The notes under the pieces were generated by a model. That model had not been told where the DNA came from. It saw nothing but the letters and a program-made list of their open reading frames with translations, and searched no databases. A program made the position numbers and the translations under genes. This document shows positions 5,250 to 49,624 of a DNA stretch of 64,000 nucleotides, piece by piece. The stretch comes from Escherichia coli (GTDB taxonomy: Bacteria > Pseudomonadota > Gammaproteobacteria > Enterobacterales > Enterobacteriaceae): the NCBI RefSeq assembly GCF_003334355.1, contig NZ_QOWP01000006.1. One strand, written 5' to 3'. Position 1 is the stretch's first letter. The number at the start of each line of letters is the position of its first letter.

Positions 5250-5291
5250 GTCATACCACTCGCCTGATTATTTTTAGCTATGTTGGATTTT

Positions 5292-5318
5292 GCCACGGTT
5301 TATACCGTGGCTTTTTTT
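5292..5318 (+). terminator. Rho-independent terminator of allDCE operon
   Basis: GCCACGGT-TTAT-ACCGTGGC hairpin followed by TTTTTTT. Confidence 0.7.
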
Positions 5319-5326
5319 GTAACATT

Positions 5327-5431
5327 GCCTGATGCGCTTCGCTTATCAGGCCTACATGATCTCTGCAATATATAGAATTTGCGCGATTTTCAGGAAGGAT
5401 ATAGTACTCATGCCGCATCCGGCATGAGTAC
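5327..5431. repeat. REP element plus a 12-bp-arm perfect palindrome between allE and glxK
   Basis: GCCTGATGCGCTTCGCTTATCAGGCCTAC REP-like unit; AGTACTCATGCC-GCATCC-GGCATGAGTACT palindrome at 5402-5431. Confidence 0.6.
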
Positions 5432-10877: not shown

Positions 10878-11014
10878 AAATCCCTCTTAATTTCACGTAT
10901 CGAATAACGTTGTTTTAATCTAGCTATGAGGAACAAATAAAATAAAAATATTATTTTTAATACTGAAGCAACATCTTTGGCTGCTTTCTTTTTTAATATT
11001 GCTGGCCGATTCAT
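10736..11014 (-). CDS. ybbV: YbbV-like hypothetical 92-aa ORF overlapping the ybbW 5' end; probably not a real gene
   Basis: 92-aa ORF of the size and position recalled for K-12 b0510; heavy overlap with ybbW and no convincing SD. Confidence 0.2.
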   Translation of the reverse strand: MNRPAILKKKAAKDVASVLKIIFLFYLFLIARLKQRYSIREIKRDLWNIRENYSSNAAIAKIYCRKRKASGPGKHLTILPYGWVRFITFPIM

Positions 11015-18378: not shown

Positions 18379-18441
18379 TGGGCGGTATTCTGAAACGGCG
18401 ATTGTCGTGAGAACAGAATGGTTGCACCAGAATACAGATAT

Positions 18442-18478
18442 AAAAAAACCGACATGACAGTCGGTTTTTTTATTTTTT
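18442..18478. terminator. Bidirectional rho-independent terminator (selU on +; candidate sRNA on -)
   Basis: AAAAAAA-ACCGAC-ATGACA-GTCGGT-TTTTTTTATTTTTT; A-tract before and T-tract after the hairpin. Confidence 0.75.
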
Positions 18479-18530
18479 CCGCCCAAGACTTGGTGGTTCC
18501 GGGCAGAAATGAAACAGTCCTCATCTAGCA
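18442..18530 (-). ncRNA. Candidate antitoxin sRNA (~88 nt); its 5' end is antisense to a 16-nt element that recurs in the toxin leader
   Basis: Minus-strand promoter (-35 TTGAAT, 17-bp spacer, -10 TATAAT) puts the start near 18529-18533; transcript begins with the reverse complement of CAGTCCTCATCTAGCA (18515-18530) and ends at the bidirectional terminator. Confidence 0.4.
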
Positions 18531-33103: not shown

Positions 33104-33238
33104 GCCGGATGCGGCGTGAACGCCTTATCCGGCCTACGGTTCAGGCACAAGTTTGTAGGCCTGATAAGACGGGTAAGCGTCGCATCAGGCAATGGTGCTC
33201 GGATGCCGGATGCGGCGTGAACGCCTTATCCGGCCTAC
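33104..33238. repeat. BIME cluster: three REP units in alternating orientation between copA and ybaQ
   Basis: GCCGGATGCGGCGTGAACGCCTTATCCGGCCTAC twice, flanking an inverted GTAGGCCTGATAAGACGGGTAAGCGTCGCATCAGGC. Confidence 0.85.
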
Positions 33239-33260: not shown

Positions 33261-33602
33261 TTACGCGACCTTTTTTGCACGCTCTTCACGGCGTGCCAAA
33301 TATTCAGCCACTGTTTCAATCCGTCCCAATTCTTCCTGGGTGCGCAGGTTGTTTTCAACTTCCCAAAGATCAACCGCCGCCTGGAGGTTTAGCCAAAAAT
33401 CGACTGTGGTATCAAAAACTTTCGCCAGACGAAATGCCATCTCAGTAGTGAGTTTACGATTGTTATTGATCAGTGCACTGACGCTATTACGATGAACATG
33501 CAGCAACTCTGCTAACTCATTGATTTTCAAATCGAGCGGTTCCAGATATTCATAGAGAAGAATATCTCCGGGTGTCGTCGGTTTTCTTGTTGCCTGTTTC
33601 AT
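33261..33602 (-). CDS. ybaQ: XRE-family HTH protein YbaQ (113 aa; HigA-antitoxin-like)
   Basis: ORF contains MKQATRKPTTPGDILLYEYLEPLDLKINELAELLHV... Confidence 0.85.
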   Translation of the reverse strand: MKQATRKPTTPGDILLYEYLEPLDLKINELAELLHVHRNSVSALINNNRKLTTEMAFRLAKVFDTTVDFWLNLQAAVDLWEVENNLRTQEELGRIETVAEYLARREERAKKVA

Positions 33603-33739: not shown

Positions 33740-34534
33740 ATGGATCTGTTGTACCGGGTAAAAACGCTTTGGGCCGCGCTGCGCGGTAATCATTACACCT
33801 GGCCTGCCATCGATATCACCCTCCCCGGCAATCGCCATTTTCATCTGATTGGCAGTATTCATATGGGTAGCCACGATATGGCTCCCCTGCCCACCCGTTT
33901 GCTCAAAAAGCTCAAAAACGCCGATGCGCTGATCGTCGAGGCGGATGTTTCCACCAGCGATACGCCTTTTGCTAATTTGCCTGCCTGCGAGGCGCTGGAA
34001 GAGCGCATTAGCGAGGAGCAACTCCAAAACCTGCAGCACATTAGCCAGGAGATGGGCATTTCTCCCTCACTCTTTTCTACCCAACCGCTGTGGCAAATCG
34101 CGATGGTTCTTCAGGCGACGCAGGCACAAAAACTGGGGCTGCGGGCAGAATACGGTATCGATTACCAGCTATTGCAGGCGGCGAAGCAACAACATAAACC
34201 CGTGATTGAACTGGAAGGGGCTGAAAACCAGATTGCCATGTTGCTCCAGCTCCCTGACAAAGGACTGGCGCTGCTGGACGATACGCTGACCCACTGGCAT
34301 ACCAACGCACGGTTGCTGCAACAAATGATGAGCTGGTGGCTGAATGCACCGCCGCAAAATAATGATATAACGCTGCCCAATACGTTCAGTCAGTCGCTGT
34401 ACGATGTGCTGATGCATCAGCGAAATCTCGCCTGGCGGGATAAATTACGCGCCATGCCGCCGGGGCGATATGTGGTCGCGGTCGGTGCACTACACCTGTA
34501 TGGAGAAGGGAATTTGCCGCAAATGTTGCGCTAA
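33740..34534 (+). CDS. ybaP: TraB-family protein YbaP (264 aa)
   Basis: 264-aa ORF divergent from ybaQ. Confidence 0.85.
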   Translation: MDLLYRVKTLWAALRGNHYTWPAIDITLPGNRHFHLIGSIHMGSHDMAPLPTRLLKKLKNADALIVEADVSTSDTPFANLPACEALEERISEEQLQNLQHISQEMGISPSLFSTQPLWQIAMVLQATQAQKLGLRAEYGIDYQLLQAAKQQHKPVIELEGAENQIAMLLQLPDKGLALLDDTLTHWHTNARLLQQMMSWWLNAPPQNNDITLPNTFSQSLYDVLMHQRNLAWRDKLRAMPPGRYVVAVGALHLYGEGNLPQMLR

Positions 34535-34616
34535 AAAAATGGCCAATATCGCTATTGGCCCGTCAAAGAGGAATTTCATTTTTTTATTATTATGCCGTCA
34601 CTTTAAGCGACGGTGT
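34533..34616 (-). ncRNA. chiX: ChiX (MicM/SroB) Hfq-dependent sRNA, ~84 nt
   Basis: Minus strand reads ACACCGTCGCTTAAAGTGACGGCATAATAATAAAAAAATGAAATTCCTCTTTGACGGGCCAATAGCGATATTGGCCATTTTTTT, matching recalled ChiX; ybaP-ybaK intergenic as in K-12. Confidence 0.85.
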
Positions 34617-40292: not shown

Positions 40293-40376
40293 GTAGGCAT
40301 GATAAGACGCGCCAGCGTCGCATCAGGCATCGAGAGCCAAATGCCAGATGCGGCGTGAACGCCTTATCTGGCCTAC
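40293..40376. repeat. REP pair between convergent ybaL and gsk
   Basis: GTAGGCATGATAAGACGCGCCAGCGTCGCATCAGGC and GCCAGATGCGGCGTGAACGCCTTATCTGGCCTAC. Confidence 0.8.
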
Positions 40377-43765: not shown

Positions 43766-43896
43766 TACCGCCTCTTATCGATTCAACTTGTTGATAATTG
43801 TAGCGGAAAAGTGAGGAAGAAGAACTAATTGCTGTGAGAGGTATTGCCTGAGGAGGATGAGCAGACCTGCCCGAAAGCAGATCTGCTGCGGCTTGA

Positions 43897-47692: not shown

Positions 47693-49624
47693 TCAAATGG
47701 GGCGGATACTGTCTTCATCCAGCTCCGCATCGAAGAATCGACGCAGGGTCTGAATATTATTATCCGCAATAATGGACTCGCGCGCCTGCGCAAGTTTTTC
47801 TTCGTATATCGCCTGACGCCATTCCAGCGGCGTACGCACCGCGGGATTATCATCTTCAACGATAGTCAGTTCAACCGTTGAACCTTTTAACGTGCTCAAC
47901 GCTTCAGCCAGTTTTTGCTGTGCACCGCGGTTGTTCAAATGCCGCTGAGAGGTGCGCAAATGCAGACATACTGCGTTGTCGCTCTCCTCTTTCCAGGCAT
48001 TTAAGGCCACCTGTTCGACCAGTTTTGGTAGCGAAAGTTGGCTAACCTGTGCCGCCCACGCGTCGCGCTCAATGGCTTCTGCCGCCAGCTTCGCCGCCAG
48101 TTCCGGCGTTTTTTCATGTTCCAGCGCTTTTTTCAGCGCCTTCGGCGTGGCGACCACTTCTTTTTGCTGCATCACCGGAGTGGTCGCCTTCCAGCGATAC
48201 GCTTCTTTTTTAGCTGGCGCTTTTTCCAGCGCCGATGGCACCGGACGCGCCTGAACGCGATCGGTGACCGAAGCCAGTCTTTCCAGCGCAGCGTTATTCA
48301 CCGGCCGCGCGCGGGTAGCGGCTGCCGGTTCACTCTTTTTTGCTTTGGTTGCTCCCTGCACGCGCTGCAACTGCTGGCGCGCCGCCAGCACCTGGCTGGT
48401 GGTTTCCGGGAGCGGTACAGTCGGAGCCTGCTGCGGCGCTGATTGCGGTTGCGGCGGCACCTGGGTTGGCGTCATTACTGCCGTTGGTGCGACAGGTGCA
48501 AAGGACTGGCGTGGCACTTCTGGCTCAGGCAGCGGCATACGCGGATGGAATGCCAGCGCGCGCAGCAGCGTCATCTCAACGCCCATGCGGCGGTCCGGCG
48601 CATACGGTAATTCTTTGCGACCAATCAACAGCGTCTGATAGTAAAGCTGAATATCCGTCGGCGGTATGGTGCGCGCCAGTTCACGCATCCGCAGCTCGAT
48701 GGCGGCCATGTCGTTGCCAAGTGCAGCAGGCGAAAGTTGTACCATCGCAATACGATGCAACAGACCGAGCATTTCCACCAGCAACGCTTCCCACTCGATA
48801 CCACGGGCAGCGGCTTCATTAATCAGCGCCATTACGCGCTCGCCGTTGGCCTCGACCATCGCTTCAACCAGCGACAGCGCCTGATCGTCGTCAAGCGTAC
48901 CCAGCATCGCACTGACCGCCTGGGTTGAAACCTGGCCGTCACCGCTGGCAATCGCCTGGTCGGTCAGACTTAAGGCATCTCGCAGGCTGCCTTCAGCGGC
49001 GCGCGCCAGCAATTGCAACGCCCGCGGCTCGTGAGCGATATGTTCTTCGTTGAGGATGTGCTCAAGCTGATGGCGAATTTGCTCGACATCCAGCGCCTTG
49101 AGATGAAATTGCAGACAGCGTGACAAAATCGTCACCGGCAATTTCTGTGGATCGGTCGTCGCCAGCAGAAACTTAACGTGCTCCGGCGGCTCTTCAAGGG
49201 TTTTTAACAGTGCGTTAAAGCTGTGGCGCGACAGCATATGCACTTCGTCGATCAGATAAACTTTGAAACGACCACGCGCCGGAGCGTACTGGACGTTATC
49301 CAGCAGGTCGCGGGTATCTTCAACTTTGGTGCGCGAGGCGGCGTCGATTTCAATCAGATCGACAAAGCGCCCCTGCTCGATTTCACGACAGTTATCGCAC
49401 ACGCCGCACGGCGTCGCGGTAATGCCGGTTTCGCAGTTTAGCCCCTTCGCCAGCAGTCGGGCGATAGAGGTTTTTCCGACGCCACGGGTGCCGGAAAAAA
49501 GATAAGCATGATGAATACGCCCTAACGACAAGCCGTTCGCCAGTGCGGTCAGCACATGTTCCTGGCCGACGACGTCAGCAAAGGTTTGTGGGCGCCATTT
49601 TCGGGCTAAGACCTGATAACTCAT
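47693..49624 (-). CDS. dnaX: DNA polymerase III tau subunit DnaX (643 aa); gamma made by frameshift
   Basis: AAA+ Walker A GTRGVGKTS; 643 aa. Confidence 0.97.
   Translation of the reverse strand: MSYQVLARKWRPQTFADVVGQEHVLTALANGLSLGRIHHAYLFSGTRGVGKTSIARLLAKGLNCETGITATPCGVCDNCREIEQGRFVDLIEIDAASRTKVEDTRDLLDNVQYAPARGRFKVYLIDEVHMLSRHSFNALLKTLEEPPEHVKFLLATTDPQKLPVTILSRCLQFHLKALDVEQIRHQLEHILNEEHIAHEPRALQLLARAAEGSLRDALSLTDQAIASGDGQVSTQAVSAMLGTLDDDQALSLVEAMVEANGERVMALINEAAARGIEWEALLVEMLGLLHRIAMVQLSPAALGNDMAAIELRMRELARTIPPTDIQLYYQTLLIGRKELPYAPDRRMGVEMTLLRALAFHPRMPLPEPEVPRQSFAPVAPTAVMTPTQVPPQPQSAPQQAPTVPLPETTSQVLAARQQLQRVQGATKAKKSEPAAATRARPVNNAALERLASVTDRVQARPVPSALEKAPAKKEAYRWKATTPVMQQKEVVATPKALKKALEHEKTPELAAKLAAEAIERDAWAAQVSQLSLPKLVEQVALNAWKEESDNAVCLHLRTSQRHLNNRGAQQKLAEALSTLKGSTVELTIVEDDNPAVRTPLEWRQAIYEEKLAQARESIIADNNIQTLRRFFDAELDEDSIRPI
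48301..48354 (-). other. dnaX: dnaX programmed -1 frameshift cassette (A AAA AAG, downstream stem-loop, upstream AGGGAG)
   Basis: Plus strand shows CTTTTTT at 48335-48341; palindrome CCGGCCGCGCGCGGGTAGCGGCTGCCGG at 48301-48328; -1 frame gives ...KKE then UGA. Confidence 0.85.

Follow-up and report, generated by a model that had tools for sequence, protein, structure and literature searches.

The window analysed here, a stretch of 64,000 nucleotides of Escherichia coli DNA, carries within its dnaX gene a cassette that is almost certainly the canonical E. coli dnaX -1 frameshift signal, an already known and ordinary element. A search against Rfam gave a match to RF00382 of 96.8 bits (gathering threshold, 35; E = 5.8e-20) covering model positions 1 to 65 of 65, and the PGAP feature "DnaX frameshifting element" on the identical sequence of strain ATCC 8739 translates to window positions 48360-48296, which coincides with the Rfam match. 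The 65-nt cassette is also identical to that of K-12 MG1655 at 65 of 65 positions. The preliminary description of this DNA had called the tau/gamma frameshift cassette intact, and the presence of all its elements, the full-length RF00382 match and the identity to K-12 bear this out; in the alignment to the reference dnaX that it had proposed, both the heptamer and the stem-loop are undisrupted.

A survey of complete E. coli genomes found the cassette once each in 5424 of 5426, labeled by PGAP as "DnaX frameshifting element." Its identity was at least 99% in 5373 of these genomes and 95 to 99% in 51, and the remaining 2 gave no match; among the matches listed, variant H10 differs near the 3' end only, outside the stem. 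The dnaX cassette ranks with the best-studied recoding signals known in biology, and finding it unchanged from the reference in an E. coli genome is what one would expect; it raises no new question.

The dnaX gene and its two products

By family score and gene order, the open reading frame at 47693-49624 is dnaX. Its product exceeds the 613-bit cutoff of the NCBIfam equivalog NF005942 with a score of 982 bits, its DNA matches the dnaX genes of E. coli ATCC 8739 and HS at 100% identity, and the gene order, apt-dnaX-ybaB-recR-htpG, is as expected. A full-length tau chain of 643 residues is present in the PDB (8gj0_B). As seen in Table 1, the shorter product shares the zero frame up to the slip point, where G48335 is re-read within GAG before the -1 frame UGA. 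The predicted gamma protein has 431 aa and 47.5 kDa, with a C terminus of ...AKKE, and scored 791 bits against NF005942; a chain of 431 residues is likewise found in the PDB (8giy_B).

Table 1. Features of the dnaX locus, in coordinates of the window
Feature	Position	Strand	Details
dnaX zero-frame ORF (tau)	47693..49624	minus	643 aa, 71.1 kDa, stop codon included; from the ORF list
gamma coding range	48330..49624	minus	zero frame 49624 to 48335, then -1 slip
DnaX ribosomal frameshifting element (Rfam/PGAP definition)	48296..48360	minus	RF00382
Internal Shine-Dalgarno-like stimulator AGGGAG	48352..48357	minus	10 nt 5' of heptamer
Slippery heptamer A_AAA_AAG	48335..48341	minus	third base of codon 428 + Lys429 + Lys430
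-1 frame UGA stop	48330..48332	minus	one codon past slip, inside AGUGA linker
3' stimulatory stem-loop	48300..48329	minus	11 bp (6+2+3), -18.0 kcal/mol

In the K-12 RefSeq annotation, dnaX holds tau and a gamma coding sequence joined from two pieces that ends at gene nucleotide 1295, and the -1 UGA of the window dnaX falls exactly at this end point. The family score, the synteny and this shared gamma end point agree with the minus-strand and frame assignment made previously. The cassette serves the window as an annotation check on the strand and frame of dnaX, both of which it bears out, and the locus should be annotated with tau (643 aa) as well as gamma (431 aa, with a -1 slip at 48335) instead of a single product.

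The window dnaX differs from that of K-12 at 18 nucleotides, none of them inside the 65-nt cassette. These sequences differ by four amino acid changes (P522A, S558T, M578T, and E638D), all located in the C-terminal part that belongs to tau only. Against ATCC 8739, local alignment of the window gave 99.88% identity across 11.7 kb; a position-by-position comparison over 13.9 kb had counted 1688 mismatches, an artefact caused by an intergenic indel.

Elements of the frameshift cassette

The preliminary description had placed, on the minus strand, an upstream AGGGAG, a slippery A AAA AAG and a -1 frame that ends after Glu at UGA to give gamma, and each of these was recovered at the positions of Table 1. 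A spacer of 10 nt separates the Shine-Dalgarno (SD)-like element from the heptamer. Since the heptamer begins with the last base of codon 428, it lies in the shift-prone X_XXY_YYZ phase with respect to the tau frame, with AAA and AAG as codons 429 and 430 of 643. Reading in the -1 frame gives AAA AAA GAG UGA (Lys-Lys-Glu-stop), and the linker between the heptamer and the stem-loop has 5 nt, AGUGA. The interval previously given for the cassette, 48301-48354, cut off 3 nt of AGGGAG, which extends to 48357; the complete element spans 48296-48360.

The GC-rich stem-loop that had been described as a palindrome is present on the minus strand as a hairpin. The plus-strand string CCGGCCGCGCGCGGGTAGCGGCTGCCGG occupies 48301-48328 precisely as it had been quoted, and in the fold of the minus-strand RNA one additional closing A-U pair (48329/48300) flanks it. 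The palindrome is imperfect: the 11-bp stem, capped by a UACCC loop (48317-48313), is interrupted at 48323/48306, where A is apposed to G, and at 48309, where a C bulges out. The minimum free energy fold obtained with ViennaRNA equals the Rfam consensus structure.

Conservation of the cassette in relatives

To sample relatives independently of the cassette, dnaX genes were anchored on a DnaX peptide located about 70 codons upstream, and the 21 assessable genes with 65% or higher identity to E. coli DnaX were compared. The combination of an in-phase heptamer, a single -1 codon followed by UGA, an SD-like element and a CCGGC...GCCGG hairpin was found in 20 of the 21 relatives. The SD-like element stands at the same distance in 21/21 E. 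coli-type cassettes, with GGG/GGA (alignment columns 8 to 10) nearly invariant, and A_AAA_AAG is unchanged in all but one of the 21 aligned relatives, Rahnella, which has A_AAA_AAA. The T-G-A of the -1 stop (columns 32 to 34) is invariant in all 21 sequences; the zero-frame codon that ends in its T encodes S, N, A, G or R.

The DnaX protein is poorly conserved around the cassette. Fourfold-degenerate sites within the stem are invariant across genera, whereas an unpaired third-position column varies among A, T and G. Compensatory changes were observed at pairs 35-67 (AU:10/GC:8/GU:1), 40-62 (CG:20/UA:1) and 45-57 (CG:10/UA:2), so that the formal covariation consists of three pairs, drawn from related sequences, and 6 of 10 pairs never vary. 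Stem cells were paired in 91.4% of cases versus 23 to 54% when the partners were slid by 1 to 3 columns, and none of 500 shuffles reached the observed covariation score. The MAFFT alignment yields no single consensus for the upper stem, with Escherichia and Citrobacter carrying GCCGC...GCG-C-GC, with the bulge, versus a GCGC...GCGC type. Pairs 44-58 and 45-57 appear broken in 7 to 9 sequences because the two stem types pair in different registers; each relative's sequence individually folds into a hairpin. From the covariation and the constrained synonymous sites, we judge that the stem structure is under selection in these relatives. This cassette-blind sample provides a mildly useful, independent confirmation of selection on each element across Enterobacterales.

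Proposed mechanism and comparison with known systems

In the proposed mechanism, tRNA-Lys would occupy AAA in the P site and AAG in the A site of the heptamer, at codons 429 and 430. The 11-bp GC-rich hairpin, 5 to 6 nt downstream, would then lie at the mRNA entrance and hinder translocation, while AGGGAG, 10 nt upstream, would base-pair with the 16S rRNA anti-SD. Caught between the hairpin and the SD-like element, a large fraction of ribosomes would let both tRNAs re-pair one base back on AAA_AAA. After the slip, GAG would be decoded as Glu and UGA would end translation, giving the 431-aa gamma; ribosomes that do not slip would give the 643-aa tau. Domains IV and V, the C-terminal part specific to tau that binds DnaB and Pol III alpha, are missing from gamma.

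The E. coli K-12 dnaX element (RF00382) shows zero differences from the window inside the element. Both have the same sequence, gene, codon position and spacings (10 nt and 5 to 6 nt), the same 11-bp stem with its A·G apposition and bulged C, the same Glu-ended -1 product and the same product sizes. This element has been described by Tsuchihashi & Kornberg 1990, Tsuchihashi & Brown 1992 and Larsen et al. 1997 (cited in PMC6771820). Its shift efficiency has been given as 50 to 80%, with AGUGA as the linker (PMC7282821); loss of the SD lowers it to about 50%, loss of the hairpin to 20% and loss of the slippery site to 2% (PMC5389563). PMC6771820 reports that two tRNAs slip during translocation and that a starvation route exists as well, and PMC5009743 describes a 50% shift with a stop one codon later and a stem of 11 bp that contains an A:G apposition and a bulged C. 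Because the cassette is 100% identical to the K-12 one used in published experiments, we infer efficient frameshifting in the source strain, probably at about 50% in vivo (50 to 80% in assays); gamma would be expected in this strain as well, at about the same level as tau.

Other systems resemble this one in part. In IS3-family elements such as IS911 (PMC5009743), the same A_AAA_AAG is found together with an upstream SD-like sequence and a 3' structure, and these sites share a dependence on the single E. coli tRNA-Lys. The IS shift fuses two ORFs into a longer transposase, at lower efficiency and with more elaborate 3' structures; in dnaX, shifted ribosomes add one codon and stop, at a frequency of about 50%, so that the protein is shortened. 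Caulobacter crescentus likewise has two DnaX forms with a common N terminus, but its gamma arises post-translationally by proteolysis of tau, without an mRNA recoding signal (PMC5009743).

Alternative readings of the site

A short gamma and a long tau are also made from one gene, at roughly 1:1, in Thermus thermophilus, where PMC5009743 attributes them to RNA polymerase slippage on an A9 tract with stops in both frames and with no hairpin or SD needed. If gamma arose in this way on the A run of the window, the hairpin and AGGGAG would be incidental. The site does hold a homopolymeric A tract, and A9-A10 tracts with nearby stops in both alternative frames occur in other sampled dnaX genes, for example in Acerihabitans (L041), Haemophilus (L043/L085) and several metagenome-assembled genomes (MAGs), which indicates that a transcriptional slippage route exists in the dnaX family. 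However, the tract of the window has 6 A's only, and efficient bacterial transcriptional slippage is described for runs of about 9 A or T (PMC5009743); a heptamer scan of the window dnaX found no runs of 8 or more A or T. Furthermore, the nearby stop lies in the -1 frame only, since the +1 frame remains open for 22 more codons beyond the heptamer. Relatives keep the SD-like element, the hairpin (with compensatory changes) and the exact spacings, which are stimulators at the level of translation, and mutagenesis of the identical sequence in the literature points to a ribosomal event (PMC7282821, PMC6771820, PMC5389563). The window thus departs from the Thermus type, and transcriptional slippage, ruled out here by the 6-A tract and the conserved translational stimulators, is left with a negligible probability.

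Ribosomal frameshifting at the cassette was also weighed against a chance co-occurrence of its parts in a GC-rich, Lys-containing coding stretch, in which case conservation would reflect selection on the tau protein only. Some single elements are indeed unremarkable. The window contains 23 A_AAA_AAG heptamers versus 15.4 expected, a difference that is not significant, and dnaX itself holds two further AAAAAAG strings. The energy of the hairpin relative to 200 shuffles gave z = -1.9 to -2.1, and 8 to 9 of the 200 fold equally well; hairpin stability alone is therefore modestly unusual, which is weak evidence in a GC-rich coding sequence. Because the heptamer occurs at chance frequency and the hairpin reaches a z of only about -2, the case rests on the combination of elements, their conservation and the identity to the reference. 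The composite of SD, 10-nt spacer and heptamer occurs a single time in the window, versus 0.07 expected even when one mismatch is allowed. Both other AAAAAAG strings of dnaX are in a non-slippery phase, and the dnaX site is the sole in-phase A_AAA_AAG within ORFs of more than 150 codons in the window. The invariant fourfold-degenerate stem sites and the invariant T of the -1 UGA, kept despite a poorly conserved protein and a changing amino acid, also stand against a coincidence, as do the compensatory changes in the stem and the RF00382 E value. A coincidence is refuted as far as sequence analysis can refute it, and we consider it extremely improbable.

Hardly any probability attaches to a third reading, in which the plus-strand hairpin (48301-48328) and its CTTTTTT run form an intrinsic terminator of an antisense transcript: the plus strand reads TTCACTCTTTTTTGC after the hairpin, which is superficially terminator-like, but the T run begins 6 to 7 nt past the stem, whereas the terminator scan needs it within 0 to 2 nt and called no Rho-independent terminator at this hairpin, the region holds no more terminator-like matches than shuffled sequence does (3 versus 3.3 expected), the plus-strand ORFs here are mechanical antisense ORFs only, and no antisense gene is annotated in the reference genomes.

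dnaX sites in other lineages

Outside the E. coli-type cassettes, other arrangements were observed. At the homologous site of Acerihabitans arboris (L041), A_AAA_AAA is kept, but the CCGGC hairpin is gone and there is no longer a -1 stop close by; about 170 codons upstream, the same gene has an A9 tract with close stops in both alternative frames. Within Enterobacterales, transcriptional slippage may thus have taken the place of ribosomal frameshifting in this lineage.

The string A_AAA_AAG CC UGA was found in Vreelandella, Haemophilus sputorum, Oceanisphaera, Arsenophonus and one MAG, and the dnaX of Vibrio breoganii has the same layout with GG UGA instead; at all these sites the hairpin is absent or different. 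A joint reading, in which the enterobacterial cassette would be replaceable and several non-enteric Gammaproteobacteria would carry a cassette that RF00382 misses, is tentative, and we hold it to be somewhat unlikely. There is nothing novel in the window cassette itself; the comparison points to lineages whose dnaX seems to make the short product by other means.

Anatomy and reading phase of the dnaX frameshift cassette

Both strands were read over window positions 48200 to 48460. The preliminary description had placed an intact tau/gamma frameshift cassette at 48301-48354, with AGGGAG, a slippery site, and a GC-rich stem-loop on the minus strand, and all three elements are present, although the end at 48354 cuts off the first three bases of the Shine-Dalgarno (SD)-like element. 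The plus-strand string quoted as a palindrome, CCGGCCGCGCGCGGGTAGCGGCTGCCGG, was found at 48301-48328, but it is an imperfect one. As seen in the table, the elements lie within a single dnaX open reading frame (ORF).

Features of the dnaX cassette and other matches in the window
Feature	Position	Strand	Source
SD-like AGGGAG	48357-48352	minus	sequence reading
Spacer CAACCAAAGC, 10 nt, between AGGGAG and heptamer		minus	sequence reading
Slippery heptamer A_AAA_AAG	48341-48335	minus	sequence reading
Linker AGUGA	48334-48330	minus	sequence reading
GC-rich hairpin	48329-48300	minus	sequence reading
Enclosing dnaX ORF, 643 aa	47693-49624	minus	ORF list
AAAAAAG in tau-only part of dnaX	48205-48211	minus	phase calculation
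AAAAAAG in tau-only part of dnaX	48127-48133	minus	phase calculation
In-phase A_AAA_AAG, 134-codon ORF	33270-33276	minus	
In-phase A_AAA_AAG, 110-codon ORF	10988-10994	minus	
Other Rfam match	5256-5322	minus	Rfam, above gathering score
Other Rfam match	5348-5390	minus	Rfam, above gathering score
Other Rfam match	18440-18528	minus	Rfam, above gathering score
Other Rfam match	33158-33235	both	Rfam, above gathering score
Other Rfam match	34533-34616	minus	Rfam, above gathering score
Other Rfam match	40296-40373	minus	Rfam, above gathering score

The phase calculation places the heptamer's first A at the third position of codon 428, so that AAA and AAG are codons 429 and 430; this X_XXY_YYZ phase is the one required for tandem -1 slippage. 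The predicted products are a full-length zero-frame tau of 643 aa (71.1 kDa) and a -1 gamma of 431 aa (47.5 kDa) with the C terminus AKKE. The claim that the -1 UGA yields gamma agrees with the K-12 RefSeq annotation, which carries a tau coding sequence (CDS) and, for gamma, a CDS joined from two pieces whose end, gene nucleotide 1295, is exactly the UGA found in the window.

The hairpin was folded with ViennaRNA into an 11-bp stem (6+2+3 pairs; -18.0 kcal/mol) capped by a UACCC loop and broken by an A·G apposition (48323/48306) and by a bulged C at 48309, and a 66-nt context gave an identical fold. The predicted structure corresponds pair for pair to the consensus of RF00382, the Rfam DnaX frameshifting element model, and to the wild-type dnaX stem as published (PMC5009743), which likewise has 11 bp, an A:G apposition, and a bulged C. 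The linker is that of PMC7282821.

Locus identity and comparison with E. coli references

The 643-aa protein scored 982 bits against NF005942, the NCBIfam equivalog for DNA polymerase III gamma/tau (cutoff, 613), and the 431-aa product scored 791 bits; E. coli chains of 643 and 431 residues in the PDB match both products. The gene order apt-dnaX-ybaB-recR-htpG-adk is common to the window, K-12, and ATCC 8739. The dnaX DNA is 100% identical to that of E. coli ATCC 8739, HS, and others, with 99.88% identity to ATCC 8739 over 11.7 kb around the gene, and the PGAP "DnaX frameshifting element" on the identical ATCC 8739 sequence corresponds to window positions 48360-48296. Alignment to K-12 MG1655 revealed 18 nucleotide and 4 amino acid differences in dnaX and an identical 65-nt cassette. 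All four substitutions, E638D, M578T, S558T, and P522A (window positions 47711, 47892, 47953, and 48061, respectively), fall past the frameshift site, in the C-terminal region that only tau has, and the part common to gamma carries synonymous changes only. The observation in the preliminary description is confirmed and its interpretation supported; the element is already known, and its value here is that of an annotation sanity check.

The 65-nt element occurs in one copy in 5,424 of 5,426 complete E. coli genomes, at 99% identity or more in 5,373. Two of these matches are on records labelled plasmids and two genomes had no match to the element, which may reflect replicon mislabelling or assembly problems.

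Chance, terminator, and slippage readings

Taken singly, the heptamer count (23 AAAAAAG observed in the window versus 15.4 expected) and the hairpin energy (z of about -2; 8 to 9 of 200 shuffles equally stable) are weak signals. The combination is not: AGGGAG-N10-AAAAAAG occurs once in the window, against 0.07 expected even allowing one mismatch, and the RF00382 covariance model matched 65 of 65 positions with 96.8 bits (gathering score, 35; E = 5.8e-20). The cassette also holds the only in-phase A_AAA_AAG within ORFs longer than 150 codons; the two further AAAAAAG strings in the tau-only part of dnaX are in phase AAA_AAA_G and hence form no canonical tandem-slippage site.

Gamma could instead arise by transcriptional slippage at the A tract. 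This is unlikely, since the tract has 6 A whereas such slippage is described for runs of about 9 (reviewed in PMC5009743), and the conserved translational stimulators would be left unexplained. Read on the plus strand, the hairpin is followed by a T-run, as in an antisense terminator, but this reading fails: the spacing does not fit, the terminator scan made no call there, and terminator-like matches in the region are at shuffle level. Pure coincidence of the elements can be dismissed on three grounds: the composite statistics, the Rfam score, and the way the cassette is conserved.

Conservation of the cassette in relatives

One genome per species was scanned with a degenerate pattern for the DnaX peptide EMTLLRxLAF, an anchor some 70 codons 5' of the frameshift site that was chosen to avoid selecting on the cassette itself. 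Among the 120 loci recovered, one (L037) was a chance match; in the other 119 the anchor lies within a long DnaX-frame ORF, typically about 350 to 400 codons in where the upstream extent suffices. Twenty-one assessable genes share 65% identity or more with E. coli DnaX. Of these, 20 have an in-phase heptamer and then exactly one codon in the -1 frame before UGA; they also carry an SD-like element upstream, at about 10 nt, and a CCGGC...GCCGG hairpin 5 to 6 nt downstream. The heptamer is A_AAA_AAG except in Rahnella (A_AAA_AAA). These genes come from Citrobacter, Enterobacter, Superficieibacter, Pseudescherichia, Klebsiella sp., Yersinia, Serratia, Pantoea, Rahnella, Rosenbergiella, Pectobacterium, Brenneria, Budvicia, and three metagenome-assembled genomes (MAGs). 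The sites of Budvicia (48.9 bits), Yersinia (43.7), and Rahnella (41.0) still pass the RF00382 gathering score.

When these 20 sequences and the window's own were aligned, the lower stem showed no variation and the closing pair covaried (AU, 10; GC, 8; GU, 1), with compensatory C-G to U-A changes at pair 40-62 in Rosenbergiella and C-G to U-A at pair 45-57 in Pectobacterium and Brenneria. Paired cells made up 91.4%, versus 23 to 54% with partners slid by 1 to 3 columns, and none of 500 shuffles reached the observed covariation score. The region being coding, the synonymous sites are more telling: fourfold-degenerate third positions in the stem (columns 38, 59, and 65) are invariant, column 62 varies only jointly with its pairing partner, and column 41, the unpaired third position holding the A of the A·G apposition, is A, T, or G. 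The first T of the -1 UGA is invariant, while the zero-frame codon to which it belongs specifies S, N, A, G, or R. Together, the synonymous and covariation patterns show that each element is selected at the RNA level, beyond the tau protein sequence.

A contig labelled "MAG: Klebsiella pneumoniae" (L096) encodes a DnaX 59% identical to that of E. coli and lacks the cassette. Its dnaX has SRP RNA and a tRNA as neighbours, the arrangement seen in non-enteric Gammaproteobacteria, and the contig is probably mis-binned.

Putative mechanism

Since the sequence is identical to that used in published experiments, the published mechanism would carry over to the window, with heptamer, 3' hairpin, and 5' SD-like sequence acting as three cooperating signals. 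About 50% of ribosomes shift and stop one codon later, giving a gamma:tau ratio of about 1:1 (PMC5009743). Loss of the SD lowers the in vitro efficiency to about 50%, loss of the hairpin to 20%, and a change of the heptamer to the non-slippery G_AAG_AAG to 2% (PMC5389563). Slippage occurs chiefly during two-tRNA translocation; when aminoacyl-tRNA is limiting, there is also a slower "hungry" route that involves one tRNA (PMC6771820).

dnaX sites of other layouts

The following sites in other genomes are side observations and leave the verdict on the window unchanged. Seven non-enteric loci, from Vreelandella aquamarina (L013), a gammaproteobacterial MAG (L023), Arsenophonus (L025), Haemophilus sputorum (L043), Vibrio breoganii (L049), Saccharophagus (L078), and an Oceanisphaera MAG (L089), have an in-phase A_AAA_AAG, one codon, and then UGA. 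AAAAAAGCCUGA is present in five of them (L013, L023, L025, L043, and L089). Hairpins at these loci are either weak or of another kind, and none of the seven reached the RF00382 gathering score. These could be frameshift sites that the curated family does not cover.

Acerihabitans arboris (L041) is the one exception among the close enterobacterial dnaX genes of the sample: it lacks the E. coli-type cassette. Its homologous site keeps A_AAA_AAA_A (A8), with the -1 stop 34 to 35 codons off and the CCGGC hairpin lost. About 170 codons upstream lies an A9 tract whose nearest stops are 1 codon off in the -1 frame and 5 codons off in the +1 frame, a layout like Thermus-type transcriptional slippage; the tract and the homologous site are about 31 and about 201 codons after the EMTLLRALAF anchor, respectively. 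About 14 of the 119 dnaX genes sampled have A9-A10 tracts with near stops in both alternative frames, an arrangement that matches the Thermus-type layout mentioned in PMC5009743. Those listed (L004, L024, L025, L043, L045, L056, L059, L081, L085, L093, L099, L102, and L120) lie within dnaX downstream of domain III, and most have a stop within a few codons in each alternative frame, which points to transcriptional slippage as another possible way of making a short DnaX product.

Other observations in the window

Two in-phase A_AAA_AAG heptamers lie in shorter stop-to-stop ORFs; that at 33270-33276 is 4 codons ahead of its ORF stop and adjoins a naRNA4/REP-like match. The other Rfam matches comprise the sRNAs STnc480 and ES036, the antisense RNA AgrB, two naRNA4 (REP-derived) copies, and sroB. 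In the adk-hemH intergenic region (about 43842-43896), the window is about 104 bp shorter than ATCC 8739, a possible presence/absence polymorphism of a repeat element; identity is 99.88% from the indel toward dnaX and 98.9% on its far side.
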